Shown piece after piece: positions 9,203 to 47,622 of a DNA stretch of 64,000 nt; the stretch's first letter is position 1; each line of letters opens with the position of its first letter. The stretch spans positions 152,150 through 216,149 of the forward strand of contig CAVYIV010000016.1 of NCBI GenBank assembly GCA_963768675.1. Direction: 5' to 3'. Source of the DNA: an uncultured Chloroflexia bacterium. Lineage in GTDB: Bacteria; Chloroflexota; Limnocylindria; Limnocylindrales; CSP1-4. The translations under genes were made by a program, and so were the position numbers. The notes under the pieces were generated by a model that was not told the DNA's origin, did not search any database, and saw nothing but the letters and a program-made list of their open reading frames with translations.

Positions 9203-10163
9203 TCACAGCTCCCGCAGCTTGGGGTTGAAGATCTCGTCGAGGCCGACGTTCATGACGTACAGCGCCCCGACGATGGCCGTGATCGCAAGCCCGGGCGGGA
9301 TGAACCACCACCAGAGCCTGCAGCTGCAGAGCGCTCCAGAGCACGGCGTTGTTCATCATCAGTCCCGAGGGAGATCGCCGTCCGGTCGGGCCGAGGCCGA
9401 TGAAGTCGAGGGTCGCGGCGATCAGGATCGCCCCGCCGAAGAGCAGGATGAAGGTCATGAACAGGTAGGAGCCCATGTTCGGGGCGATCTCCTGGAAGAT
9501 GATCTTCCAGCTCGCTCAGCCCGCTCAGGCGCGCTAGGTCGACGAACTCCCGGGATCGCAGCGAGAAGGTCTGGGCGCGGACGCCCGCGCGGCCCACGGC
9601 CAGGAGGTCAGCCCGATGAAGGCGGCCTCCACGACCACCCCGCGCGCCTTGAGGTAGGCAGCGATGACGACGCAGGACAGCGAGGGTCGGGATGACCAGG
9701 ACGACGTTCGTGATCATGTTCAGGATCTCGTCCACGATCCCGCCCCGGTAGCCGGCGACGAACCCGATGCTGATGCCGACGAGGGCCGCGAGGCCTCCGC
9801 CGAGCAGACCCGACGAGGAACGTGGCCTGCAGGCCGTTGACGAACTGGGCGAAGACGTCCTGTCCGAACGTGGTCGTGCCGAACCAGTAGTCGGCGCTGG
9901 GGGGCTGCCCCGTGGGGCCCGACGAAGGCCTGCGGATCGTTCGGGTCGACGATCGGCCCGACGATCGCGAGGGCAAGAAGAACAGGACGATCCCCGCGCC
10001 GATGAGGATCCGCTTGTCGCGCAGCGCGAAGTAGAGGATCTCGCGCCGTTGGCGCACTGGGGCCGCCCCGGGGAACGCCGTGGTCCCCGACATTGGCACG
10101 GGCTCCCGAACTTCCAGGGGCCCGCCGGCCGGGCCGGCCGGGAGAACGTCGCTGTGCGCTCAT
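9203..10163 (-). pseudogene. ABC transporter permease (OppC/DppC-like), multiply frameshifted
   Basis: Fragments [118 protein letters not shown] and [18 protein letters not shown]-stop lie in alternating frames. ATG 10163 overlaps the upstream stop (ATGA). Confidence 0.7.
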
Positions 10164-34294: not shown

Positions 34295-35785
34295 TCAGAG
34301 GCCGGCCCGGGCTTCGGCGCGGGCCACAATCTCGCGGAGCTCGGCTGCGGCGTCATCCGGGAGCGGCAGCGGGACCCGGTTGGCGGCAAGGATCGCGTCC
34401 GCTCGGTCGGCGGCGCGGGCGGCCAGCGCCCGGCCACCCGCGTTGGCCCATGCGCCCCGCGAGCGCCGATCGAACAGCGTCGGGTACCAGCGCGAGCGGT
34501 AGTGAGCCAGGGTATGGTCGGATTCGAGGAAGGAGCCCTCGACCCCGAGCTCGTCGACGAGGTCGAGCGCGAAGGCGTCGTCAGAGAGGTCGACCGGCGC
34601 GGTGGCGGCGCGGGTCCAGCCAACGATCTCGTCGCAGATCGCGAGCTGCGCCAGCGACCCGGCGAGCCCCGACTCGAGGTAGCCGCTGTCGTGCGTGACC
34701 TGACCCGCAGCGAGCGCGTCGAGCAGGATGGCCGCGGCGGCCTCGGCGGCGGCCTGGCCGTCGACGATCTTCGAATCCGCGCCCCCGCCGAGGCTGAACA
34801 TCGGGAACCCCAGGTGGTGGGCCAGCGCCTCCGCAGCACCCTTCGGGTCGGGGCCCACGTAGGGGTCGACCGTCGTGCGCAGATCAAGGGCATCGCCGCC
34901 AAAGCCGGGCACGACAACCGGCGCGCCCTCGCGCACGAGCTGCGCGATCACGATCCCAGCGAGCACGCCCGCGTGGTTGACTGCGAGCGTCCCGGCGAGC
35001 GTGACCGGCCCGGTCGTGCCGCCCGAGGTGACCGGGATCCAGAGCGCCGGGAGCCCGCGCTCGGCGAGGAAGAGGAGCCGGCCGACCGCGTCCTCGTCGA
35101 GGAGGAGCCCGCGCGTCACGTTGATGTACCAGCCGATCGTCGGGCGCGCCGCCTGCTCTCCGGCGCCGCCGGAGACGGCCGCGGCCATCGCGAGGACGTC
35201 CTTGAGCCCGTCGAGCTCGTACGTCACGACGATCAGCGGCTTCGTCGTCCCGGTCAGCATCGCGACGGCCTGGTGGCGATCGGCGACCCGCCCATCGACA
35301 TCCGAGGGCAGGAACATGGACATGGCGAAGGCCATGTTCGGGAGCGCATCGACCAGGGCAATGCCGGCGCGGACGTCGGCAAGCGTGGCGAGGCGCCGCT
35401 CGCCCGTCCGCCCGTCGACGATGTTGGGGCAGTCCGAGCCAGGCCCGAACCAGGCCGTCTCGCCTCCCCAGGCGATCGCCGGCCGGCCCGACCGGTCGTG
35501 CAGGGTGAGCGACTTCGGCGTGACGGCGAGCCCCTCGGCCACGAGCCGCGCCGGGATGCGCACGCGATCGGCCTCGTCGACGCGCGCGCCGGCGGCCGCC
35601 AGCAGGCGCCGCGCCTCCGGGTGGTCGACCCGGACGCCCGTTCGCTCGAGGATCGCGCAGGCCGCTGCCTGGATGCTCGCGCAGCCTTCCTCGCTCAGTC
35701 GCGTCCAGCGGCCGGCGCCGGGCGTGATTGCCGCCGGACCGGACCACTCGTCGGTGCGCACGCGAGCAGTATCCTTTATCGGCAT
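34295..35785 (-). CDS. MttB-family corrinoid methyltransferase, non-Pyl, paralog 3 (first gene of the operon)
   Basis: From MPIKDTARVRTDEWSG (ATG 35785): LSEEGCASIQAAACAILERTGVRV...GFGGDALDLRTTVDPYVGPDP...GSLAQLAICDEIVG, collinear with paralogs 1 and 2. The 81 codons upstream in ORF 34295..36028 run antisense into the integrase gene and are not coding. Confidence 0.85.
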   Translation of the reverse strand: MPIKDTARVRTDEWSGPAAITPGAGRWTRLSEEGCASIQAAACAILERTGVRVDHPEARRLLAAAGARVDEADRVRIPARLVAEGLAVTPKSLTLHDRSGRPAIAWGGETAWFGPGSDCPNIVDGRTGERRLATLADVRAGIALVDALPNMAFAMSMFLPSDVDGRVADRHQAVAMLTGTTKPLIVVTYELDGLKDVLAMAAAVSGGAGEQAARPTIGWYINVTRGLLLDEDAVGRLLFLAERGLPALWIPVTSGGTTGPVTLAGTLAVNHAGVLAGIVIAQLVREGAPVVVPGFGGDALDLRTTVDPYVGPDPKGAAEALAHHLGFPMFSLGGGADSKIVDGQAAAEAAAAILLDALAAGQVTHDSGYLESGLAGSLAQLAICDEIVGWTRAATAPVDLSDDAFALDLVDELGVEGSFLESDHTLAHYRSRWYPTLFDRRSRGAWANAGGRALAARAADRADAILAANRVPLPLPDDAAAELREIVARAEARAGL

Positions 35786-35837
35786 AGTACACTCACCGAA
35801 ACGAGGCTCACGAGGCCGAAGGATTGGAGCACCAGCC

Positions 35838-37208
35838 ATGATGCCACGCGCCGAGAACCACGGGCGGGCCGTCGAGTACCTACGCCGCAGCGTGGAGCGC
35901 GACAAGAGTGCCGATAAGGACCGCGGCGCCGGCCAGCGTGCCGCCAACGCCGCCCAGGCCGCCCGCGATGGCGTGATCATTGCGCGGTCCTTCGATGGTG
36001 ATTGGGGCATCTCCGGCGGCCGTGGCAAGCGCGAGTACCGGCACGCGATGGCCGAGCTAATCGACGCGATCCGCGCCGGCGAAGTCTCCCGCGTCTACTG
36101 CCACACGACCGACCGACTGGCCCGCGACGTCGAGTACGGCATGGCCCTCTGGAACGCCTGCAAGGACGCCGGCACGATCCTCCGCCCTGGCTCGCAGACG
36201 TTCGACCCCCAAGAGCCCGGATACCTAACCCTCTGGACCGTGCTACTCGCTCAGGCCGAAGAAGACCTCGACCGGATGACTAGGAAGAACCACGACCAGA
36301 TCGACTACGGGCGCGACCACGCCCTGACCTGTCCGCTCCCCGGCCGCCCGCACCTTGGCCGATGCCATCTCGTCGGATGCACCGACAAGACCCATTGCAG
36401 CCTAAGCCATGAGCGCGGCCGGAAGCCCTACGGCACCATGCCGGAGGAGGACGCCGCCGCCGTCGTGACCGCCTTCCTCGAAGCCGGCAGCCTGAACGGC
36501 GCTGCCCGCATCTTGAACGACCGCGGCGTACCAACCAAGACGCCCGGCGGACGCTGGTCGGCCCGGACAATCAAGGCCGTCGTGGAGCGGACCACCCCCG
36601 GAACGGTCCCCTACGGTGGCCGGAGAGGAGCGCGCACCGTCGCCCGGCGAGCCCTTGCCGGGCTCCTGCATTGTGGCGGGACCGTCGCGGGAGGCGCGAC
36701 GTGCGGCCACGTCCTGACCTCTAAGCCGCGCCCAGCTGCCACGCGACGCGACGGGACGCCGCGCCAAGCCATAACGCAGTGGATTTGCCCCGACGTCGTA
36801 AACACCACCACGCACAGCAGGCCCCAGGGGATCAGCGAGGCCCGGCTACTCCCGGCGATCATGGCCGAGAGCCTGCATTACCGGGCCCCGGCCGACGAGT
36901 TCACCGCGGCCGAGCGTACGAGCCAGCGCGACAAGCTCACAGCCGACCTTGCCCGCGTGCAACGACTCGCGATCTCTGGCGTACTGGACGAAGACCAGGC
37001 CGCGGCCGAGGCCAAGTCGATCCGGGCCCAGCTCGCCGCCCTCGACCACGCGGCAGCGCCAGTCGCGATACCCCAGGCGATCTCCTGGAGCGCCCCGGCC
37101 GCAGAGCTCAATGGATGGCTGCGTGCTCTGTGGCCCGAGGGTATCGAGCTCGACAGCAACCTCCTACCCGTCCGGTACTCATGGCTCCCGGGATGGCGCC
37201 GTGACTAG
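35838..37208 (+). CDS. large serine recombinase (integrase)
   Basis: N-terminal resolvase-type catalytic domain (AVEYLRRSVERD with candidate nucleophile Ser; TDRLARDVEYGMALW), a recombinase domain (GRKPYG...GSLNGAARILNDRGVPTKTPGGRWSARTIKAVV), a Cys-rich zinc-ribbon region (LLHCGG...TCGHVL...WICP) and a C-terminal coiled coil (RDKLTADLARVQRL...AAEAKSIRAQLAAL). Start ATG 35838 follows GGAG. Confidence 0.85.
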   Translation: MMPRAENHGRAVEYLRRSVERDKSADKDRGAGQRAANAAQAARDGVIIARSFDGDWGISGGRGKREYRHAMAELIDAIRAGEVSRVYCHTTDRLARDVEYGMALWNACKDAGTILRPGSQTFDPQEPGYLTLWTVLLAQAEEDLDRMTRKNHDQIDYGRDHALTCPLPGRPHLGRCHLVGCTDKTHCSLSHERGRKPYGTMPEEDAAAVVTAFLEAGSLNGAARILNDRGVPTKTPGGRWSARTIKAVVERTTPGTVPYGGRRGARTVARRALAGLLHCGGTVAGGATCGHVLTSKPRPAATRRDGTPRQAITQWICPDVVNTTTHSRPQGISEARLLPAIMAESLHYRAPADEFTAAERTSQRDKLTADLARVQRLAISGVLDEDQAAAEAKSIRAQLAALDHAAAPVAIPQAISWSAPAAELNGWLRALWPEGIELDSNLLPVRYSWLPGWRRD

Positions 37209-37361
37209 ACAGCGCCCGCGCCTCTGGATCAAACGGCCCGGCCCACCAGCCGGGCCGTTCCACGTCCCGGGATCGCACGCCCAGGGTAGGCAGAGACGAC
37301 GCCACGCGTAGCCGGAGCATACGCTACACGTATACCACCCCTAGGGTCACAGGCGCCGCAT

Positions 37362-37379
37362 ACCACAAGATGTTGTGGT
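37362..37379. promoter_or_regulatory. inverted repeat ACCACAA-GATG-TTGTGGT (operator-like) abutting the -35 box
   Basis: Perfect 7-bp arms, 8 nt upstream of the TTGACA at 37387. A second palindrome GCGTCAC-AG-GTGACGC lies at 37464-37479, and a GTCACAGG half-copy at 37346-37353. Confidence 0.35.
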
Positions 37380-37386
37380 TCCCGCA

Positions 37387-37415
37387 TTGACAGAGGCTTG
37401 CTCCCGCGGTACATT
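37387..37415 (+). promoter_or_regulatory. sigma-70/SigA-type promoter (TTGACA-17 nt-TACATT) for the rightward ORF chain
   Basis: Exact -35 consensus TTGACA (37387-37392), a 17-nt spacer and -10 TACATT (37410-37415). It lies in the 560-nt gap after the integrase gene in otherwise very G+C-rich DNA. Confidence 0.5.
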
Positions 37416-37557
37416 GGGCCCGCAGTAGGGAAGCCGGCAGCCGCGAAAGCCCGGTAGCTCCCAGCGTCACAGGTGACGCGCTCCGGGGCCGCGAGGCCGG
37501 AGCCACTTTCGCAGCCACGGCGCGACCCGCGCCGCCAGCTCGAAAGCAGGCGCACTC

Positions 37558-37761
37558 GTGACCTCCGCACCCGCAGAACCCACCTTCGGCGCCCACATGG
37601 GGCCCAGCGCGGCCGGCAGGATCGGCAGCGCAAAACGGTGGGGCCCTCCCCGCAGGATCAACCTCCGAGACATGGACGAGGCCGGCCGCCGGATCGTGCT
37701 AGCCAGCGTCGCCGCCGTCCGCGCAGAGCACGCGCGAGACACCGCCGCGGCCCAGAAGTAG
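37558..37761 (+). CDS. hypothetical small protein (weak call)
   Basis: 67-aa ORF downstream of the promoter and the only +strand ORF before the coupled chain. No clear SD; internal starts at 37600 and 37669 are possible. Confidence 0.25.
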   Translation: MTSAPAEPTFGAHMGPSAAGRIGSAKRWGPPRRINLRDMDEAGRRIVLASVAAVRAEHARDTAAAQK

Positions 37762-37770
37762 GCCGGCGCC

Positions 37771-38454
37771 GTGACCCGCGGAGAAGGCTTGCAGCGAGCC
37801 GATATCGACTCGTCTCTACTCACCGACCCGAAGCTACGCCGACTCCGGCGCCAGCTCCCGGACGCCGCCCAGATGGCCCGCGCCGTGGTCCTGTACCTCG
37901 CAGCCCTCCTCGACTCGTGGAGGACCGGAGAGCGAGTCTCCGCGGAGGACGCGGCCCCCGAATGGATCGAGGCCGACGCCGGCACGCTCGCCGCGCTCGT
38001 GGCCGCCGATCTCCTCGACAACGAGTACCGCGTCCCGCTCCACGCCTGGACCGCGTGGCACGACCCCGCCGTGCAGCGCATCTCCCAGAACCGCGAGAAG
38101 GCCCAGCTAGGAGGACTCCGCGCCCGCGGGGCCCGGACCCGCGACGAGGCCGAGGCTATGCGCGCAGCCCTCAACAGCCCAGCTATCAGCCCAGCTATCA
38201 GCGCCACTGATACACCAGCCAGCCAGCCAGCCACACCTACAGGGCCCAGCCAGCCGCTAGGAGTAGAGAACACTCCGCCGGCCGGAGCGAAGACACGAAC
38301 CGCGAAGCCCTCAGATGACGACGAACGACGCCGAGAGGCCGCGGCAGCCCACGCCTACGAGCTCGACGCGAAGTACCGGCCCAGCATCCCGACCGACCCG
38401 CGCCCCCTTCGGGACATCGTGGCCCAGCTCGCCCAGACAGGAGCGCCAGCATGA
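37771..38454 (+). CDS. hypothetical element protein (helical N-domain, low-complexity linker, acidic C-terminus)
   Basis: First ORF of a chain linked by ATGA/GTGA overlaps. The N-terminal part (DSSLLTDPKLRRLRRQLPDAAQMARAVVLYLAALLDSWRTGERV) faintly resembles phage replisome-organiser/DUF1376-type N-domains, but this is not established. It contains in-frame tandem repeats (PAIS x2). Confidence 0.55.
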   Translation: MTRGEGLQRADIDSSLLTDPKLRRLRRQLPDAAQMARAVVLYLAALLDSWRTGERVSAEDAAPEWIEADAGTLAALVAADLLDNEYRVPLHAWTAWHDPAVQRISQNREKAQLGGLRARGARTRDEAEAMRAALNSPAISPAISATDTPASQPATPTGPSQPLGVENTPPAGAKTRTAKPSDDDERRREAAAAHAYELDAKYRPSIPTDPRPLRDIVAQLAQTGAPA

Positions 38455-38666
38455 CCGACCCCGAAGACCTCGAACACCGACGCCGCCGGCACGAGCGGCT
38501 AGACGGTACGGGCAGCCCGACCCACAACGGCGCCGAGCTCCGCCGACGCGAACGCTTCGACGTGGCCCGCAGGATCGACCGGCGCGAGCTCAAACGCTGG
38601 ACGCTCGAACGCTTGCAGGCGATGGAGCGCCGCATTGACACCCTCGAACGGGAGGCCCGGCCGTGA
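38451..38666 (+). CDS. hypothetical small coiled-coil protein
   Basis: ATGA overlap with the upstream stop, with AGGAG 6 nt upstream. Arg/Glu-rich helical sequence. Confidence 0.5.
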   Translation: MTDPEDLEHRRRRHERLDGTGSPTHNGAELRRRERFDVARRIDRRELKRWTLERLQAMERRIDTLEREARP

Positions 38667-39256
38667 GCATGGCGGCCGGAGGCGCCCGGCCCGCGACCAT
38701 GCCCGAGCTCATGACCGCGCACACGCCGGAGCCGCCTAGCGCCGCCGATGCGCTCAGGAGAGCCAGCCGCCGGCACCGCGCCGCTATCGAGCGCCTAGAG
38801 CGTGCCCGGGATGCGACCACGGCCGCGCTCGCAGCGAACGAGGAGCCGACGCCGGGCAGCTCACGCCAAGCGAACAGCGCCCGTATCGCCCTCGACGCCG
38901 CGCTAGCCGAAGTCTCCGAAGCCAGCGCCGCGCTCGTGGAAGCATGGCGCCGCCGCGCCCAGGCCGGCCCAGAACAAGCCGGGCCCGAACAGCTCGCAGA
39001 GGCCCGCGAGCTCCAGGCCCAGGGTGCCCAGCTCGCCGGCCGGACCCGCGCCTACCTCCGAGCCATCCTCGAAGACGGGCGAGAGCTCGACGCCGAAGCG
39101 CGCGAATGGCGCGCGGCAGCGTCCGACTTCCAAGCCGCCAACGCGCTACGCATAGACCGGAGCGCGGTCGAACCCCTCGCAGACCTCGCAGCGTGGACGA
39201 CGCTAGCCGCCGCCGTCCGGTCCGCGCTGGACTACCTCCCGGAGCCGAGACGGTGA
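38663..39256 (+). CDS. hypothetical Ala/Glu-rich helical protein
   Basis: GTGA overlap with the upstream stop, with GGGAGG 7 nt upstream. Contains the in-frame repeat GPEQAGPEQ. Confidence 0.5.
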   Translation: MSMAAGGARPATMPELMTAHTPEPPSAADALRRASRRHRAAIERLERARDATTAALAANEEPTPGSSRQANSARIALDAALAEVSEASAALVEAWRRRAQAGPEQAGPEQLAEARELQAQGAQLAGRTRAYLRAILEDGRELDAEAREWRAAASDFQAANALRIDRSAVEPLADLAAWTTLAAAVRSALDYLPEPRR

Positions 39257-39588
39257 CCCACACAGCCGCTCACAGACTGCTAGAGCTCGCCCGGAAGCGA
39301 GCCTTGACCCACACGTCACCAACGCCGGCACCAACGCCGGCACCAACGCCACCAACGCCGCCGGCCCGTGAATACCTCGAACCGCGCGACCTCCCAAACG
39401 ACGACCTCTTGTGGCACTCATGGCGGGCCCAGGAGGCGACGAGACGACTACAGGAGGCCGCCGGGCAGACGCCGGACGCCGTGTATTCGCCGCCGGCCCG
39501 CCTATCGGCCGAGGAGCGCCGCGCCGCCCTCGAACGTCTCCGGGCAGCCAACCGCTACCCAGGCGACCACGAGGAGGCCGACGAATGA
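39253..39588 (+). CDS. hypothetical protein with TPAP repeat
   Basis: GTGA overlap with the upstream stop. 12-nt tandem repeat CACCAACGCCGG (39317-39362) encodes (TPAP)n. In frame within ORF 38944..39588. Confidence 0.5.
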   Translation: MTHTAAHRLLELARKRALTHTSPTPAPTPAPTPPTPPAREYLEPRDLPNDDLLWHSWRAQEATRRLQEAAGQTPDAVYSPPARLSAEERRAALERLRAANRYPGDHEEADE

Positions 39589-39950
39589 GAGCCGCCCACG
39601 TCGAGCCGCCCAGCCTCAGATGCGGACAGCTCCACGACCCACGCCTAGCCGCCGGCCGACTCTCGCAGACGTGCCCCCGGTGCGGGCGGTCGGAGGCCGC
39701 GCACTGGTATTGCTCCTGGTGCGTCCGGCCGATGACGCCGGCCAACTGGTACGAAGACAAGCGCGGCAGCGACGAGGCCGCCCGCCGTATGCCGAAGACC
39801 GCACCGGCCGACCCGCCGACCGAGCTACGCGAGCACTGGCCGCCGTCGTGGGGCCCGAAACCCCGCCAGAAGGCCGCCAGCGCCCCCCAGGAGGCCGCAG
39901 ACACCCCGGAACCCCTAAACGTGGCCCAGAACACCACCGCAGCAGCGTAG
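39585..39950 (+). CDS. hypothetical zinc-ribbon protein
   Basis: ATGA overlap with the upstream stop. CPRC-x9-CSWC four-Cys motif (TCPRCGRSEAAHWYCSWC). Confidence 0.5.
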   Translation: MRAAHVEPPSLRCGQLHDPRLAAGRLSQTCPRCGRSEAAHWYCSWCVRPMTPANWYEDKRGSDEAARRMPKTAPADPPTELREHWPPSWGPKPRQKAASAPQEAADTPEPLNVAQNTTAAA

Positions 39951-39964
39951 AGAGGATCGCCAGC

Positions 39965-40666
39965 ATGACAACGCTCTATGTCTTCAGGACCGCCGAGGCG
40001 CCGTCGCTCACCGTCGGCCCAGGACTCCGAGGCGACGACGCGACCACAGTGCAGTTTGTCCCGGGCCCGGACGGGGCAGGGTACGCCGAGATCAGCTCAG
40101 ACGACCCGAACCTAGCGCGCAAGCTCGCATGGATCACGAGCGCCCGGAACCTGTACCGGATCGAGGCAGTAGAGGCCGACTCCCGGCCGACGCCCGACGC
40201 CACCCTCTGCGACATGGAATGGTGCCCGGTCGGGATGGATCAACGGGCCGGCAGGGTCCCGCACGTGGCAGCGCCACATGATGCGCCACGCCCCGGGAGG
40301 CGACCTCCCCAAGCCCCGCGCGAACGTGACCACGAGCGGCCCGGAGTTTGCCCGATGAGCCCGCAGCCCTTCGACCGCCACCAACTAGGCCGCTACCTCG
40401 AAGCGAAGCTAGCCGGCCGTGAGCCCGAGCCGATCCCGGGCCCGGCCCCGACGCAGACGCTCGCAGACGTGGCGCGCAACGCCATCCGAGCCAGCGACCA
40501 GGAGGAGGGAACCCCCAACGACACCACATCCCGCCGCGCGTTCCTGTCTCTAGGAGTCTCCGGCCGGGAGGCTCTGGCCGACGAGAACAACCCCAACCAC
40601 GAGGCCGCAGCCGAGCTCTACGCGAAGTTGGCCGAGCTCGAACGCAGGAAGGACCGGAGCGCATGA
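39965..40666 (+). CDS. hypothetical protein
   Basis: ATG 39965 lies 14 nt after the previous stop, preceded by GAGAGGA (MTTLYVFRTAEAPSLTV...). 233 aa, the largest product of the chain, with no recognisable motif. Confidence 0.5.
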   Translation: MTTLYVFRTAEAPSLTVGPGLRGDDATTVQFVPGPDGAGYAEISSDDPNLARKLAWITSARNLYRIEAVEADSRPTPDATLCDMEWCPVGMDQRAGRVPHVAAPHDAPRPGRRPPQAPRERDHERPGVCPMSPQPFDRHQLGRYLEAKLAGREPEPIPGPAPTQTLADVARNAIRASDQEEGTPNDTTSRRAFLSLGVSGREALADENNPNHEAAAELYAKLAELERRKDRSA

Positions 40667-40950
40667 CCGACCACCGACCACCCAGCGAGGACGCTAAAGA
40701 GCTCCAGCGCATCCGGGAGGGTATCGCCAAGGCGAGGGAGGACGCCGCGGCCGGCCGACACCCCGCCCATTGGCAGCCGAAGTACAGCGAGCTCCGGCGC
40801 CACCTGTCCGCGGTCGGGGCCGCGGCCCCGATCCCGGACGACCCAACCACGAAGCCCAAGGACAAGCGACCCGGGCGATACCACCTCGACGCCTACAACG
40901 TCCCCTATTGGCAGGAAGACCCAGAACCGCAGGAAGGCGAGACACGATGA
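40663..40950 (+). CDS. hypothetical small protein
   Basis: ATGA overlap with the upstream stop, with GGAG 5 nt upstream. Confidence 0.5.
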   Translation: MTDHRPPSEDAKELQRIREGIAKAREDAAAGRHPAHWQPKYSELRRHLSAVGAAAPIPDDPTTKPKDKRPGRYHLDAYNVPYWQEDPEPQEGETR

Positions 40951-41297
40951 GCACCCCGAAGACCTCGAACAAGACCGACACGGGACACCCGGCCGCGGGG
41001 CACCCGTCCGACTTCGGCCCGGCCGACGCCAACACGACGGGCCCGGGATCATTCCCGACGCACCCGACGACCCTACCGGGCAGCGGAGGCCCGGCACATG
41101 AGCCGTTGAAGGTCAACAGCGGACCCGTCCCGGGAGGCTGGGGCACCTCGACCGGAAAGCGCGCGACCGGGAACCTCCCCGGACTCGACCACCCCTCGGA
41201 CGCAGGCGACCGCGTGACCCCGGCCGGACCAGCCGCCCAGCCGAACCCCAAGCTAGCCGGAGCCGGCGCCACGAAGAAGGCGCCGCCCAACAAGTAG
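40947..41297 (+). CDS. hypothetical Pro/Gly-rich protein
   Basis: ATGA overlap with the upstream stop. Low-complexity, probably disordered product. Confidence 0.45.
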   Translation: MSTPKTSNKTDTGHPAAGHPSDFGPADANTTGPGSFPTHPTTLPGSGGPAHEPLKVNSGPVPGGWGTSTGKRATGNLPGLDHPSDAGDRVTPAGPAAQPNPKLAGAGATKKAPPNK

Positions 41298-41413
41298 ACG
41301 CGGCAGGGCCGACCCGATCCCGGCCCACCGCGTCAAACGGGCCGGCCGGTGGACTTCCCCCAATCGGTCGGCCCGACACCTACGGCCGGCGCGATGTAGG
41401 CACGCCAGCCACA

Positions 41414-41443
41414 GGGGCCCGGACTGGTAGCGGTCCGGGCCCC
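41414..41443 (+). terminator. GC-rich hairpin between ORF blocks (attenuator/terminator-like, no U tract)
   Basis: GGGGCCCGGAC (41414-41424) pairs with GTCCGGGCCCC (41433-41443), giving an 11-bp perfect stem and an 8-nt loop. It is followed by AGGAG and ATG 41467. Confidence 0.35.
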
Positions 41444-41466
41444 GCACCTCGACAGGAGCCGACCAG

Positions 41467-41835
41467 ATGACCGACACGAACGGACCCGACCCGGGATACA
41501 CGAAGCCCGGCCGCCGCGGAATGGTGCACGATGCCGACCTCGACGTATGGATGGACCCAGCGACCGCGGACTACATGGAGAACGCCGCCGGCCGCGGCAT
41601 CCCGGGCCCGGCCCTGCCACGCTCGAAGCGCGGCCGCAGCGCGCCCAAGCCGAAGGCCACCGGCAGCGCCGCCAGGATCGCCGACCTCGCCCATCAGATC
41701 GCCGCGGAGGCCCAGGCGATGACCTCGAACGCGCCGACGGAGGCGCCGCCAGCGGTGGAGCGAGCCGAGGAGCAGACGCCTGTCCCAGCCGCGACCCCGC
41801 ACGAGCTCGCCGTAGCGGAGCAGGGGCAGCCGTGA
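41467..41835 (+). CDS. hypothetical protein
   Basis: AGGAG lies 8 nt upstream of the ATG. 122 aa with a basic middle (KRGRSAPKPK). Confidence 0.5.
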   Translation: MTDTNGPDPGYTKPGRRGMVHDADLDVWMDPATADYMENAAGRGIPGPALPRSKRGRSAPKPKATGSAARIADLAHQIAAEAQAMTSNAPTEAPPAVERAEEQTPVPAATPHELAVAEQGQP

Positions 41836-41974
41836 ACGAGCCGCAGAGCCGACCCTAGTGGTGCACCCACGCCTACGCAAGAGCCAGCGGGCCCTAGGCT
41901 CCGACCCCGGCCGGTAGGACACTGGATCCCCCAAGGAGGATACGCGCGACCCCGGACCACCCTTAGGCCCAGAA

Positions 41975-42193
41975 ATGGAGCAGTCCTTGCCCTACGCCGA
42001 CCCCGAGAAGAAACGCGCTTACGACCGCGCCCACCGCGAGCAGCACGCCGCAGTCCAGCGCACCTACTACGCCGCCCACCGCAAGGCCATCCTCCGACAG
42101 AAGGCGGCCTATGACTCCGCCCATTGTTCGGATCGGATGATCGCTCGCCTCAGGCTAGACGGCCAGCGAGCCCTAGAGCCCTTCACCGCGTGA
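41975..42193 (+). CDS. hypothetical small protein with YADPEKKRAY motif
   Basis: 72-aa ORF. Its N-terminus, PYADPEKKRAYDRAHREQHAAVQRTYYAAHRKA, is paralogous to the next ORF. Confidence 0.45.
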   Translation: MEQSLPYADPEKKRAYDRAHREQHAAVQRTYYAAHRKAILRQKAAYDSAHCSDRMIARLRLDGQRALEPFTA

Positions 42194-42534
42194 GTTACGC
42201 CGATCCCGAGCGACGCCGCGCTTACTGGCGCGCCTACCACGCAGCGCGCCCCAAGGAGCACGCCGCGGCCCAGCGCCGATACGCCGCCACGCCGAAAGGA
42301 CGAGAGGCCGCGGCCCGGTCCCACTGGAAGGAGTACAAGCAGAACCTACGCCAGCGCATCGCCGACGGCCCCGCCAAGATCGCCGCCCTAGAGGCCGAAC
42401 TAGACGAGCTCCTCGCAGTACCGCAGCGTGCCGATGCGTCGCCCAGCGTACCGGCCAGTACAAGGCCCGAGACAGACGATGGGGCAGACGCGCTCATCGT
42501 CGCAGTCTGGCGTCACGTCACCGCGAGGCCCTGA
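42190..42534 (+). CDS. hypothetical protein with YADPERRRAY motif (tandem paralog)
   Basis: GTGA overlap with the upstream stop (VSYADPERRRAYWRAYHAARPKEHAAAQRRYAATPKGREA...), followed by a coiled-coil segment. Confidence 0.45.
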   Translation: MSYADPERRRAYWRAYHAARPKEHAAAQRRYAATPKGREAAARSHWKEYKQNLRQRIADGPAKIAALEAELDELLAVPQRADASPSVPASTRPETDDGADALIVAVWRHVTARP

Positions 42535-42856
42535 AACAGCCCCGGGGGTAGGAAGGACACTCGCGCCGCGGCCAACTTCCGCGCCGTACAACCCGGCGGG
42601 GCCCGGTGGGTGTCGCACTTGGCGCGACGGCAGAGCTCGCCGGCCGAGCCGACCGGCACGCGACCGACCGCGCCAGATGATGCGGAGCCGTGCACTCCTG
42701 GGCGGTGCGGTGCGTTCTATTTGTGCTCAGTGGGACGAGTGTACCCATACCGAGCGATTAAGACTCGACTCCCACGAGCACGCGGCGCCGATCACGCGCA
42801 ACCGTCCGCGAGCGTGCACCGGGCGAGTCATGGGGCCGCACGCATTCCTCACAGAA

Positions 42857-43017
42857 CCTATCAAGCCGGTCCGATGCTGCCCGGCGCCTATCAGCTCGAC
42901 CAGCAAGAGCTAGCCCGCCGCTCTGATAGCACGAGGCGCCTGCCGGCGCCAAGAGGACCCTGCCGCGGTATCGCTGCTGATAGCCGGACCGTGGACACTG
43001 GGGCCGCCTTCTGATAC
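42857..43017. repeat. cluster of CTATCA(G) motifs in a 650-nt non-coding, lower-G+C region
   Basis: Forward copies are CCTATCA at 42857-42863 and 42887-42893. Inverted copies are TGATAG at 42924-42929 and 42978-42983, and TGATAC at 43012-43017. CTATCAG also occurs twice in tandem inside the gene at 38183-38201. Confidence 0.35.
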
Positions 43018-43187
43018 GTACAGCGTCTAGTCAACGTGGACTCTGCGGCACCGCTCACCCTACGTCAGGCGTAGGCCCACGATGTGCACCCAGGCGCCCG
43101 CACCGTGCAGCGCATGCCGCGGCAGGGACCCTCCTCGGCCGAGCAGAGGACCTTGGCGGGCAAGCATCCGCGCGTAGACTGCGGGGC

Positions 43188-43733
43188 ATGAGTTGGGTTG
43201 ACCGGCTCCTTCGTGCGGTTGGCATCGCACAAGGAGCATATTTCCTCTGGTTCACGATAGGTACATCGGTAGTTGTGGCCGGTGCAATGGCGGGCATCCT
43301 GGCAGCAATCAGCGGACTGCCTACCTGGTCCATCGGGGTGATTGCAGTGGGGCTGTTCTTTGTTGGACTCGGCGTGGTCAACGCACTTGCCGTCGCGATC
43401 TCAGGTCGGCTCGTACCGAGGTCGGAGCCCTATCACGCACTGACGCGAGTGATTGAGGATGGCCGCCGACTTCGTGAGCGCTTGAGCGCGCTGGACACAG
43501 ACCCCACCGAGCAGGAACAGGCCGAGTGGACGGTCCGTCTCAAGGACTGGAACGACGCTGCGGACGCAACGGTCGCGCGGGTCGCACCTTTCCGGCTTGC
43601 CGCGTTCAGGGTGGACCTCATCATCGCCGATTACCCCGGGCGCAGGCAGGGTCGCCCCAAACAGATCGCCCAATGGGAACTCGACGTGGAAACGACCCTA
43701 GAGCGTTTGCTCTATATCCGAGTAACGCTCTAG
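43188..43733 (+). CDS. hypothetical membrane protein (3 TM helices plus a cytoplasmic helical domain)
   Basis: 181-aa ORF with hydrophobic segments (AYFLWFTIGTSVVVAGAMAGILAAI, WSIGVIAVGLFFVGLGVVNALAVAI). Codon usage is visibly richer in A/T-ending codons than in the flanking genes. Confidence 0.6.
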   Translation: MSWVDRLLRAVGIAQGAYFLWFTIGTSVVVAGAMAGILAAISGLPTWSIGVIAVGLFFVGLGVVNALAVAISGRLVPRSEPYHALTRVIEDGRRLRERLSALDTDPTEQEQAEWTVRLKDWNDAADATVARVAPFRLAAFRVDLIIADYPGRRQGRPKQIAQWELDVETTLERLLYIRVTL

Positions 43734-43807
43734 TCAGCAGCCTGGCGAGCTCCGCGCCCGTCCAGATGTAATCGCCGCGGCTCCGACGCTAGACTCACCG
43801 CGCCCCG

Positions 43808-44272
43808 TCACTGCGGGACGTTCTGCTGGACCCAGTAGTTGATCGCGTCGCACTTGTCGCTGAACGCCTGGTTGGCGTCATAGATCGCCTTGTAGGCTGC
43901 GTCGAACTGGTCCATCGTCATCGGTCGAGCGAAGGCTGACGCGCCGGCGACGAGAGCCGAATGCAGCGCTGCGACCTCGGCGTCCGCGCCGGTCCCTGAG
44001 AAGCCCGCGACCAGCGCGGCGTCCTTCTTGGCCGCCGCCGCTGCCACCTTGCGCGCGATTGTCACGTCGCCCAGGGTCGAGAAGTAGAGCTGCTCGGCGG
44101 CGGGCGCGTCGGTCCCGAAGTTGTAGATGCTGGCGAGCGCGCAGGCGTCAGCCTGCGCCTTCGTGTAAGTCGGCGTGGGGGCCGCAGGCGTCGCCGCCGC
44201 CCCGCCGCCGGAGCACCCGGCAAGGGCCAACACCGCTGCCATGACCCCGCCGGTAAAGCCGCGTGTAAGCAT
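43808..44272 (-). CDS. hypothetical lipoprotein
   Basis: MLTRGFTGGVMAAVLALAGCSGG is a lipobox (LAGC) signal peptide, followed by an Ala-rich helical mature domain ending CDAINYWVQQNVPQ. ORF 43808..44320 offers an upstream TTG start, but ATG 44272 fits the signal peptide. Confidence 0.6.
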   Translation of the reverse strand: MLTRGFTGGVMAAVLALAGCSGGGAAATPAAPTPTYTKAQADACALASIYNFGTDAPAAEQLYFSTLGDVTIARKVAAAAAKKDAALVAGFSGTGADAEVAALHSALVAGASAFARPMTMDQFDAAYKAIYDANQAFSDKCDAINYWVQQNVPQ

Positions 44273-45135
44273 CGCCGCCGCCTTCTTGACTCCCCCCGCC
44301 ACTCTGAACCTCGCGCCCAACGACCGCTGACTCGCCCGATGGCGTCGCTCGGGATGCCGATCTCGGCTAGGAACTCGGGCTCCTGCACAACCGGGACCCC
44401 GTACTCCTTCGCCCGTTGGAGGTTGCCGGTGACCTCCTCCGGGTCCGCGACGATGAGCGCGTGCGTCTTCTTGGTGAGGCGAGGGAGCACGTCACATTGG
44501 GCCCACCGGGCGAGCATCACCTGGGCGTGCCGGTCAAGTGGGACCCCGTAAACGGTGGTTCCCATCTCGCCCGTGAACGCGATCATCTTCCCGACCCACG
44601 GGTGGGCAGCGATTGGGGCCCGGTCGTCCGTGACCATCTCCGCGGCGCATTCGCCGGGCGTGCCGAGATGCAGGACCACGCCGACCCCTTCGCGCTCTGG
44701 GACTCGGGCCGCGTCGCAAGCTACCGCCGTTGTCATATCCGACTTGGAAGCCGCAAGGTGCCGGAATAGGGGCTGGTACGCGATTGCGTCATAGCGCGAC
44801 AGGTAGCCCGCCTGCGTCCATGCGCCGCCCGCCCACAGGTGCACGCCTATCGCGTTCGGGTCGTACTGGTTCGTCGGTTCCGGGATCAGCATCGCCTTGA
44901 AGAACCCGACGGGCGGCGGCGGGAGTCCCGGAGGTAGGTCATCGGGGCCCGGGGGACGCGCGGCTCGTAAGTTCTCCTGCCTATAGAACTCGCCGACGAC
45001 CTGCACGGCTGCGTCGTCGCGCATCCCTGTGAAGGCCGTGAAGTGCAGCCTGATCTCGTGGATGCCGGTATCGCGGCCACGCTGCCCGCTTGGCGACGCC
45101 GTCGGGGTGCCTCGCAGTCGTCGCAGGAAGCCCAT
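44062..45135 (-). CDS. HIRAN domain - BRCT domain protein (3' end uncertain)
   Basis: ATG 45135 follows GGAGGG. HIRAN signature VVGEFYRQENL...IPEPTNQYDPNAIGVHL...AGYLSRYDAIAYQPLF. BRCT-like C-terminal domain GKMIAFTGEMG...LTKKTHALIVADPEEVTGNLQRAKEYGVPVVQEPEFL. The last ~90 codons are Arg-rich, overlap the lipoprotein gene and are probably not real. Confidence 0.65.
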   Translation of the reverse strand: MGFLRRLRGTPTASPSGQRGRDTGIHEIRLHFTAFTGMRDDAAVQVVGEFYRQENLRAARPPGPDDLPPGLPPPPVGFFKAMLIPEPTNQYDPNAIGVHLWAGGAWTQAGYLSRYDAIAYQPLFRHLAASKSDMTTAVACDAARVPEREGVGVVLHLGTPGECAAEMVTDDRAPIAAHPWVGKMIAFTGEMGTTVYGVPLDRHAQVMLARWAQCDVLPRLTKKTHALIVADPEEVTGNLQRAKEYGVPVVQEPEFLAEIGIPSDAIGRVSGRWARGSEWRGESRRRRRCLHAALPAGSWQRCWPLPGAPAAGRRRRLRPPRRLTRRRRLTPARSPASTTSGPTRPPPSSSTSRPWAT

Positions 45136-45405
45136 CGCCACACCCTCCGAGCCATAAGCGCGAGTGCAGGCTAGGCTCCTATTCTGCGCCTGCCGGCGCC
45201 GTCCCATGCCTCCCAGGAGCCAGCAGGAAGCCCCAGCACGAGCGAGCGCGCGGGCCGATGGTATCCGCGTGCTGAATGGCCCTGTCTTCGGGACTACTTG
45301 GTCCTACACGTCGGGCATCGGACCTCCCTCGGCGCGAGGGTGCCGGGCCTCCCAACATGTCCGCCAGTGCGAAATGGCCCGTTGCTGCGGGCGGCGCAAC
45401 GAATA

Positions 45406-45438
45406 GCGAGGCCCCGGCCGTCCCGGCCGGGGCCTCGC
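45406..45438 (-). terminator. groEL terminator hairpin
   Basis: GCGAGGCCCCGGCC (45406-45419) pairs with GGCCGGGGCCTCGC (45425-45438), giving a 14-bp perfect stem and a 5-nt loop 22 nt after the groEL stop. On the minus strand it is followed by UAUUCGUU. Confidence 0.6.
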
Positions 45439-45460
45439 GCTGCCTGCCTGAGGGAGCGGA

Positions 45461-47094
<1,634 letters not shown>

Positions 47095-47153
47095 GGATTC
47101 GGGTTCCTCCTGGGTTGACGCGCGAAGCGGCGGGGCGAGACGGGCAGGGCCCG

Positions 47154-47465
47154 TCAGCCCTCGACGATCGCGAGAATGTCCTTCTGGCTCACGATGAGCA
47201 GGTCCTCGCCGTTGACCTTGAACTCGGTACCGGCGTACTTCGCGTAGAGGACCTTGTCGCCCACGGCGACGTCCATTTTCTCGCGCGACCCGTCATCGAG
47301 GATCCGGCCCGGCCCGACGGCGAGCGCGGAGCCCTCCTGGGGCTTCTCCTTGGCGGTGTCCGGCAGGACGATCCCGCTCTTGGTGATCTCCTCGCGCGGC
47401 GACGGCTTGATGACGACGCGATCCCCGAGCGGTCGGAGTTTCGTCGTCTCGGTTGCGGTGGCCAA
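47154..47465 (-). CDS. groES: co-chaperonin GroES
   Basis: KLRPLGDRVVIKPSPREEITKSGIVLPDTAKEKPQEG...GDKVLYAKYAGTEFKVNGEDLLI is canonical GroES. TTG start 47465 lies 7 nt after AGGAGGG. Confidence 0.95.
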   Translation of the reverse strand: MATATETTKLRPLGDRVVIKPSPREEITKSGIVLPDTAKEKPQEGSALAVGPGRILDDGSREKMDVAVGDKVLYAKYAGTEFKVNGEDLLIVSQKDILAIVEG

Positions 47466-47622
47466 CGGGTGACCCTCCTGTGCACTGTGGGTGGCGCGTC
47501 CGCCGGTCGTGCCGGCGGCCCCCTCGATGGACTGGCGCGCGGATGTCCGCGCGTCTCCCGGCAGCGATGGACCGCCACGGCCGCACGTCGAGCGGCGTCG
47601 TGACGGCGGCTCCGCGCCGTTT

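Follow-up and report, generated by a model that had tools for sequence, protein, structure and literature searches.

Genes at the locus

The window analysed here is a stretch of 64,000 nucleotides of contig CAVYIV010000016.1 from an uncultured Chloroflexia bacterium, and the subject of this report is an operon of mttB-like methyltransferase genes lying next to groESL, together with a 9.5-kb element that encodes a serine integrase and is very probably inserted at the 5' end of the first mttB gene of that operon. On the minus strand groES (47465-47154) is followed by groEL (approximately 47100-45461), an intrinsic terminator, about 9.5 kb of DNA with a lower GC content (62-74%, against 72-79% in the flanks), the first mttB-like gene, the gene for a B12-binding corrinoid protein directly downstream of it and a second mttB-like gene; further mttB paralogs lie within the same operon. 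The lower-GC stretch opens at its left end with the plus-strand gene of the serine recombinase. The coordinates of the features are collected in Table 1.

The first mttB-like open reading frame (ORF) is uninterrupted and contains no in-frame amber codon, and its PF06253 domain and adjacent corrinoid protein are those of the non-pyrrolysine members of the MttB superfamily. Its product reaches 309 bits, whereas the equivalog cutoff for the true trimethylamine enzyme is 525 bits. Relatives of the methyltransferase were collected in a scan with one genome per species, which gave 62 loci, the closest of them in metagenome-assembled genomes of Limnocylindrales/Chloroflexota with 86-94% amino-acid identity. 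A protein search identified orthologs at 93-95% identity, and every full-length one has 494 residues and an N-terminus of the form M(P/L)DTAPVRT(D/E)EW. The ORF in the window has 496 residues and begins with MPIKDTARVRTDEW (MPIK|DTARVRTDEW); its codons 1-4 (ATG CCG ATA AAG) are element DNA, and host DNA begins at 35773. Judged from the orthologs, the ancestral mttB product at this locus is 494 residues long. Exact-protein look-ups of the mttB ORF and of the HIRAN-like ORF of the element gave no match, gene callers evidently having picked different starts; on a contig of the independent Logan assembly, for example, the GTG at 35761 was taken.

Table 1. Position of the features discussed in the text, numbered from the first nucleotide of the window.
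Feature	Position	Strand	Remarks
Inserted element (very probable)	35774..45310	.	9,537 bp between the core copies; absent from L067, L068 and L012
mttB-like methyltransferase ORF, present form	34295..35785	-	496 residues; PF06253 7e-84, residues 23-493
attL crossover dinucleotide	35772..35773		TC on plus strand, GA in gene orientation; restart of homology, preceding G versus C
P arm of attP, now in attL	35774..35803	-	CGTTTCGGTGAGTGTACTATGCCGATAAAG; holds TCGGCAT, the Shine-Dalgarno-like GGTGAG (35797-35792) and an in-frame ATG (35785-35783)
Large serine recombinase	35838..37208	+	456 residues; YLRRS, Ser18; ATG 64 nt from the attL core
Small conserved basic ORF downstream of int	37558..37761	+	67 residues; 78-80% identical in L063 (1803-1994) and L065 (5829-6017)
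Lipoprotein cargo gene	43808..44272	-	154 residues; signal peptide, lipobox LAGC; second minus-strand cargo gene
HIRAN/BRCT-like cargo gene	44062..45135	-	First gene downstream of the orphaned leader; homology to relatives over 45135-44305
P' arm of attP, now in attR	45281..45310	-	CGTGTAGGACCAAGTAGTCCCGAAGACAGG; supplies the TAG that ends the orphan ORF
attR crossover dinucleotide	45311..45312		TC on plus strand, GA in gene orientation; end of homology with L067/L068/L039
Orphaned native mttB translation start	45304..45330	-	Shine-Dalgarno sequence GAGGGAGG 45330-45323, ATG 45318-45316, CCC, GA of codon 3
Conserved mttB leader, still joined to the orphan start	45331..45392	-	Two invariant blocks and a variable spacer
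groEL intrinsic terminator	45406..45438	-	15-bp stem; ends 88 nt before the orphan ATG
Half-sites, written 5' to core			P CGTTTCGGTGAGTGTACTATGCCGATAAAG; B CACCCTCGCGCCGAGGGAGGTCCGATGCCC; P' CCTGTCTTCGGGACTACTTGGTCCTACACG; B' GACCACTCGTCGGTGCGCACGCGAGCAGTA

An orphaned translation start

At the right end of the element the minus strand from 45330 to 45304 reads GAGGGAGG-TCCG-ATG-CCC-GAC-GTG-TAG (the whole reverse complement being GAGGGAGGTCCGATGCCCGACGTGTAG), exactly as written in an earlier reading of this DNA made from its letters alone, here called the original prediction. A strong Shine-Dalgarno (SD) sequence and an ATG therefore open an ORF of only four codons, which past the GA of its third codon enters element DNA (C GTG TAG) and comes to a dead end. 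The 80 nt up to ATGCCC (window 45392-45313) match the 5' region of mttB column by column at 13 other loci, with a mean column identity of 87% and with GGAGG and the greater part of the 62-nt leader invariant in the window and all 13 loci; moreover SD-ATG-CCC-GA is the same in four sites that lack the element (L067, L068, L012 and L039). With such conservation of the 80-nt stretch, the orphan start is not a chance occurrence. According to this alignment it is the SD, ATG and first eight coding bases of the mttB-like gene itself, near-identical in 14 orthologous loci, and it is a conserved, functional translation-initiation region that has been separated from its gene.

Empty sites and the point of crossover

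The contig of the best ortholog (L067) carries groES, groEL (543 residues), 143 nt, mttB (494 residues), the corrinoid gene and further mttB genes, without the 9.5 kb. The same element-free arrangement is shared by L068 and L012, and L039 is element-free with a different upstream gene; the start is intact in 14 loci that fall into four upstream contexts. It is on these element-free relatives, and not on the symmetry of the sites, that the assignment of the junctions is based. When compared with L067, L068 and L039, host homology at the right junction (attR) stops at ...ATGCCCGA, and at the left junction (attL) it restarts at GATACTGCT.... The junction in L067 reads ..GAGGGAGGTCCGATGCCCGA|TACTGCTCCCGTGCGCACC (in longer form ...CGCCGAGGGAGGTCCGATGCCCGA TACTGCTCCCGTGCGCACC...), that of attR ..GAGGGAGGTCCGATGCCCGA|CGTGTAGG (...CGCCGAGGGAGGTCCGATGCCCGA CGTGTAGGACCAAG...) and that of attL ..GATAAAGGA|TACTGCTCGCGTGCGCACC (...GGTGAGTGTACTATGCCGATAAAGGA TACTGCTCGCGTGCGCACC...).

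In the empty sites the dinucleotide GA has C before it and T after it, whereas attL has G before it and attR has C after it. Since the bases flanking GA differ in this way, and any other dinucleotide would need a mismatch within the core, these alignments indicate that the crossover overlap is exactly GA, which belongs to codon 3 (Asp) and lies 6-7 nt downstream of the ATG. The reconstructed attB is ...GAGGGAGGTCCGATGCCC-GA-TACTGCTCGCGTG..., reading ATG CCC GAT ACT GCT (junction CCGAGGGAGGTCCGATGCCCGATACTGCTCGCGTGCGCACC), and the reconstructed attP is ...GGTGAGTGTACTATGCCGATAAAG-GA-CGTGTAGGACCAAG... (junction GGTGAGTGTACTATGCCGATAAAGGACGTGTAGGACCAAGTAGTCCC). Joining the flanks at GA in silico gives the register and the length of the orthologs. 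The attL sequence is base for base the same in the independent Logan assembly (L066), whose contig takes in the 5' end of mttB, int and a further three genes.

The four empty sites thus bear out the claim of the original prediction that this is the right junction (attR) of a serine-integrase insertion, here of about 9.5 kb, at the 5' end of mttB, and also that the joined flanks give a gene with a proper ribosome-binding site, some 90 nt (88 to the ATG) past the groEL terminator. The joined reading of that prediction, ATG-CCG-ATA-AAG-GAT (496 residues) contains six extra bases, and the alignment to element-free relatives which it called for, while placing the insertion at the mttB start, gave a core that differs from the TCGG(G)CAT it had proposed. 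The other boundary that it had entertained, at 42.5-43.2 kb, is ruled out.

The serine integrase and its attachment sites

The integrase is intact and full length, and it matches PF00239 (6.5e-10, above cutoff) and the integrase family phrog_95 (9e-19). In an alignment of 22 homologs (alignment A1) the residues Y14, R16, R17 and S18 are invariant, as are C279 and C317, and C289 and H326 are nearly so. The profile of the family matches SPbeta SprA/YokA best (8.7e-10), over the catalytic, recombinase and, weakly, the coiled-coil regions, and it aligns to the recombinase/zinc-ribbon region of the phiC31 integrase (7e-9). The PF13408 zinc ribbon was found in 14 of the 22 members and PF07508 in six. 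Judged from these profiles the enzyme is a large serine recombinase (LSR), two of its three domains being supported at the level of the family and not of the single protein. Serine integrases exchange strands at a 2-bp core, with neither a longer core nor a target duplication (PMC3783163), and the 2-bp crossover is therefore an LSR signature.

The family comprises 27 proteins among 5.8 billion, and the integrase of the window forms a cluster of one, seen in a single genome. A scan of IMG/VR for relatives gave one match, a recombinase at 21% identity, and a scan of JGI metagenomes gave six short contigs with integrase relatives, too short to define att sites. Between the catalytic and recombinase domains (residues ~155-190, window ~36300-36410) we observed a Cys/His-rich insertion, HALTCPLPGRPHLGRCHLVGCTDKTHCSLSH, which four of the 22 aligned sequences lack; it may constitute an additional metal-binding module, of a kind not described for serine integrases.

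In the model of att sites of the A118 family, in which the dyads are imperfect, a 2-bp core is accompanied by an in-register region for the recombinase domain (RD) and by a motif for the zinc ribbon domain (ZD) that lies 5 bp closer to the centre in attB (PMC3783163). Here CCGAT occupies positions 6-10 of both P and B, in register; P' agrees with P at 14 of 30 positions, a block at 14-17 included; and TCGGTG, found at 22-27 in P, occupies 17-22 in B', that is 5 bp nearer the core. All these matches were recognised post hoc, and they are consistent with the LSR model with GA at the centre. The motifs GTGTAC/TGTAC and TTATCGG recur upstream of related integrases, the latter upstream of a 54%-identical integrase in L070, and GTAGGA/TCCTAC is also present at the right end of L063.

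Consequences for the operon and for the element

We consider it very likely that the 9.5-kb element was inserted by its own large serine recombinase at GA, at the 5' end of the first mttB of the groESL-adjacent operon. Strand exchange would have taken place at the non-palindromic dinucleotide GA in codon 3 of mttB. As a result the native leader, SD, ATG and eight coding bases stay beside groEL, run into P'-arm DNA and meet the TAG, and the body of mttB is joined to the P arm, where there is an in-frame ATG four codons from the junction with GGTGAG upstream of it. The left junction moreover creates AAGGA 10 nt before the in-frame GTG at 35761, which was chosen in preference to the ATG by the gene caller on the Logan contig.

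The 52 nt from the ATG at 35785 to int, and their surroundings, yielded no sigma-70-like promoter on the minus strand. Because the conserved leader, and with it the presumed promoter, is lost and no sigma-70-like promoter lies near the left end, the operon is probably silenced or strongly reduced, barring read-out from the element. The mttB gene may be translatable from the element-borne ATG, and any residual translation would begin at the ATG at 35785 or the GTG at 35761. On the other side, the DNA from the orphan start to the first minus-strand gene of the element has no predicted terminator. Host transcription probably continues into the HIRAN/BRCT-like and lipoprotein genes. The integrase together with a directionality factor would excise the element, restoring attB and the 494-residue gene exactly.

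The leader that the operon has lost was compared in the window and upstream of mttB in L001-L012, L039, L067 and L068. It comprises 62 nt upstream of the mttB SD and is kept in 14 loci, among which the gene further upstream is of four kinds. Between its invariant blocks, CAGGAAyGGGCCATTyCGCACTGGCGGA and GCCCGGCACGCTCGCG, lies a spacer of 11-12 nt that varies. An Rfam search of 35600-45600, leader included, gave no match. RNAalifold pairs block 1 with the SD, without covariation, and a hand-made model with two helices shows a single compensatory change (in L068). The leader might serve as an operator or as an atypical promoter, or be a small regulatory RNA. A look-alike of block 1 inside the element (45250-45281 minus, GGGCCATTCAGCACGCGGA), 30 nt from attR, was rejected as not significant, its score being equalled by 57 of 1000 shuffles and 204 of 3000 random pieces; it is missing upstream of chromosomal HIRAN homologs.

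The inserted element and its cargo

Long terminal or flanking direct repeats were not found at the element, and ARAGORN identified no tRNA. When its ORFs were searched with Pfam, PHROGs, NCBIfam and PADLOC, the only matches were the integrase, weak HIRAN/BRCT matches and a partial PDC-S48. The largest ORF (432 residues) has essentially no homologs among 1.84 billion representatives in an exhaustive HMMER search. No virion, packaging or lysis genes are recognisable in the element; it may be a prophage remnant, a satellite or a mobilisable element, and we do not call it a prophage.

Two minus-strand cargo genes lie downstream of the orphaned leader. The true start of the HIRAN/BRCT-like gene is 45135, and its product has a partial PADLOC match to PDC-S48, a candidate defence protein (1.7e-10). 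Its homologs, which are common in Limnocylindrales chromosomes, have 263-271 residues and begin MGFLRRL. In the window the stop after ...GRWARG is missing (TCA where TGA fits), and 81 additional Arg-rich codons run over the start of the next gene. That gene encodes the 154-residue lipoprotein, for which no family match was found.

Downstream of int lies a small basic ORF of 67 residues, also without a family match, which is better conserved than the integrase (58-65%) across three elements and whose substitutions fall mostly at third codon positions; it is a candidate for an accessory, directionality or regulatory protein. The integrase and this ORF are all that the element shares with L063 and L064 (integrase 65% identical) and L065 (58%). 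In L065 (4089-4149) and L063 (~115-175) the integrase gene again begins close to the 5' end of a divergently oriented host ORF, at most about 60 nt away. In L065 this host ORF is an ABC permease, whose called start appears to lie within the element arm, the junction being unverified. At the right junction of L063 (~9240-9265) an ATG overlaps the stop of the upstream host gene. These positions hint that the integrase family targets gene starts, although the junctions of L063 and L065 are unverified against empty sites. Placing them by analogy and by tblastn against the loci gave ambiguous results (for L063 a core of AG, or GA within GCGA), and no claim is made for them.

Some further features of the element were observed. 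The sole sigma-70-like promoter match in it, TTGACA-17-TACATT (10/12), is at 37387-37415 on the plus strand, within the 350 nt that separate int from the rightward genes. At 41993-42288 (plus strand) a diverged tandem duplication of about 100 nt encodes YADPE..R.AY.RA, and a similar motif is found near the right end of L063. From 38000 to 42000 the coding strand has an AT skew of about +0.25 to +0.5 and a GC skew of about -0.07 to -0.18, which is unlike the host flanks. Two contigs of about 9.5 kb with HIRAN homologs (L076 and L080) were checked as free forms of the element and rejected. The second of these (L080, ENA ERZ25039554 contig_120133), of Limnocylindrales type, carries a HIRAN-like gene at one end, a serine recombinase of 30% identity at the opposite end and Terminase_4 and Peptidase_S49 genes in between; it is possibly an analogous but phage-like element.

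In the neighbouring host DNA, groEL has one C too many at each of 47043 and 46193 in comparison with the 99%-identical gene of L067, and this breaks it into two ORFs. Each extra C precedes a G outside any homopolymer run; a sequencing or assembly error is the probable cause of both. The groES-groEL segment (window 45461-47500 against L067 301-2400) shows about 99% nucleotide identity and both sides of it 79-96%, which suggests that groESL either is under unusually strong constraint or was recently recombined.

Alternative explanations

Several points weigh against an insertion at GA by this enzyme. We found no empty site from the same strain or species and none above 95% identity; flank identity to the nearest relative is about 90-93% and that of the best relatives at the protein level 93-95%, and because no closer empty site was found the ancestral codon 3 (GAT) is taken from L067, L068 and L039. 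The independent assembly covers attL only and not attR. Taken alone, the integrase of the window scores 18.4 bits with PF07508, below the cutoff of 21.1, and has no PF13408 match at E <= 0.01. A scan for dyad symmetry is weak, the GA centre tying for rank 2 of 89 in attP and taking only rank 77 of 89 in attB, which shows no symmetry. Searches with Pfam, PHROGs and NCBIfam recognised no directionality factor, phage structural gene or conjugation gene in the element. Moreover all the functional consequences proposed above are inferred from sequence.

An assembly chimera, or a deletion in the relatives instead of an insertion here, would also account for the difference between the loci, and the indel errors of the assembly and the fact that attR is seen in one assembly only are in keeping with it. 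It is nevertheless extremely improbable, as the Logan contig reproduces attL with the mttB 5' end, int and three more genes, both junctions have the same precise 2-bp core beside a matching recombinase, and the start is intact in 14 loci with four upstream contexts. Scarcely more credible is the proposal that the core is TCGG(G)CAT at the start codon with a homopolymer error explaining the one-base difference, so that attB would be GAGGGAGGTCCG-ATG-CCG-ATA-AAG-GAT (reading ATGCCGATAAAGGAT) and attP ATGCC(C)GACGTG. Both strings do exist on the plus strand (TCGGGCAT at 45311-45318 and TCGGCAT at 35779-35785), the assembly does carry single-base indels in groEL, and shifting the P arm against the B arm by 6 bp brings 13 of 30 positions into agreement. 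The left TCGGCAT, however, is part of the P arm of the element, the empty sites read ATGCCCGATACTGCT without ATAAAG, and all orthologs have 494 residues, not 496. The one-base difference is not explained by run length either, since attL is reproduced independently and the groEL indels are not homopolymer-length errors. The repeat itself is without statistical weight: TCGG+CAT occurs 26 times in the window, and the warning in the original prediction that a 7-nt match is weak was justified, an exact 7-mer being common to 74% of random pairs of 100-nt pieces of this GC-rich window (99% of such pairs share a homopolymer-compressed 6-mer). A core of 7-8 bp would in addition be at odds with the 2-bp core used by serine integrases (PMC3783163).

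The remaining alternatives accept insertion at GA and differ in what follows from it. The insertion could be neutral or self-repairing, mttB being kept expressed by the start supplied in the P arm (GGTGAG-N6-ATG CCG ATA AAG) and by outward transcription from the element. The in-frame ATG with its SD-like sequence, the AAGGA before the GTG, the variable N-termini of the orthologs and the permease start that apparently lies in the element arm of L065 (junction unverified) would fit, but we regard this outcome as rather unlikely: the minus strand near the left end shows no sigma-70-like promoter, the L063 arm has no in-frame start, the gene caller on the Logan contig took the GTG over the ATG, and the conserved, presumably regulatory leader is lost regardless. 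It is tempting to see in the locus an excision-dependent switch of the active-lysogeny or developmental-rearrangement kind, with the operon off when the element is integrated, on after precise excision, and with possible reintegration. The operon is indeed split from its conserved leader, the gene would be whole again after precise excision, the integrase is complete, and recognisable virion genes are lacking (lost or never present) as in domesticated switch elements, for which SPbeta in spsM (PMC5499854) and the comK prophage of Listeria (PMC7397523) are precedents. Yet the integrase, and hence the insertion, is known in one genome only, relatives at 86-95% identity are all empty, so that the insertion looks recent and sporadic rather than a fixed device, and further mttB paralogs are present in the same operon; a switch is thus improbable on present evidence. 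We give a similarly low weight to the conjecture that the integrase family targets initiation regions and that attP mimics an SD-ATG, which would make the insertion a two-way swap in which the operon gives up its conserved regulatory leader for the start of the element and the cargo gets the leader or promoter of the host. Were this true, the host methylotrophy operon would be under the control of the element and a host promoter would be borrowed for the cargo, and excision would reverse both.

Comparison with known systems

Site-specific insertion at the 5' end of a gene is well known in kind, and the lineage in which it is found here is a little-studied, uncultured one of soil or freshwater Chloroflexota. 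We know of no description of mobile-element biology in Limnocylindrales. At this locus the attB/attP pair of a divergent large serine integrase of that group is resolved to the base pair, and genome engineering has a use for new, orthogonal serine integrases whose 2-bp-core sites are defined. The locus also presents a host methyl-transfer operon uncoupled from a conserved, uncharacterised leader. As biology the insertion is an ordinary one, and it would be notable only if excision is regulated, or if the replacement of the start codon is functional and recurrent.

The A118/phi10403S-type prophages in Listeria comK use a serine integrase. They resemble the present element in their integration into a host gene and in the concept of excision as a switch (PMC7397523); the similarity of the A118 integrase to the integrase described here is marginal (E = 0.1), and a structure of an LI integrase-attP complex is available (PMC3783163). 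Phage Bxb1, which integrates into groEL1 (PMC1470463), is likewise comparable in its serine integrase, its small att site with a non-palindromic central dinucleotide and the phenotypic cost of disrupting a host gene. However, Bxb1 enters the 3' end of groEL1, whereas the present insertion spares groEL and its terminator and lies in the 5' end of the following gene; its position beside groEL is a coincidence.

Large serine recombinases that move non-phage elements are known from Tn5397 (TndX) and Tn4451 (TnpX) (PMC4430133). The targets of Tn5397 always carry a central GA, the same core as here, which may be a coincidence. The similarity to TnpX (2mhc) is confined to the catalytic domain (E = 0.0036), and the present element is without conjugation or resistance genes. 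XisF of the Anabaena fdxN element (NF041201) is also an LSR that excises a gene-interrupting element, but with 24 bits against a cutoff of 375 the integrase of the window is not a member of that family.

The likeness to SPbeta and its recombinase SprA in the Bacillus subtilis gene spsM (PMC5499854; 9dxh, 9dxd) lies in an LSR, an interrupted coding gene and an excision that restores the reading frame. SPbeta is a functional phage of 134 kb with the recombination directionality factor (RDF) SprB and a sporulation-controlled excision, whereas the element described here has 9.5 kb and no recognisable phage genes or RDF. Moreover, unlike SPbeta, which splits its target in the middle, the insertion at codon 3 parts the expression signals from an almost complete gene.

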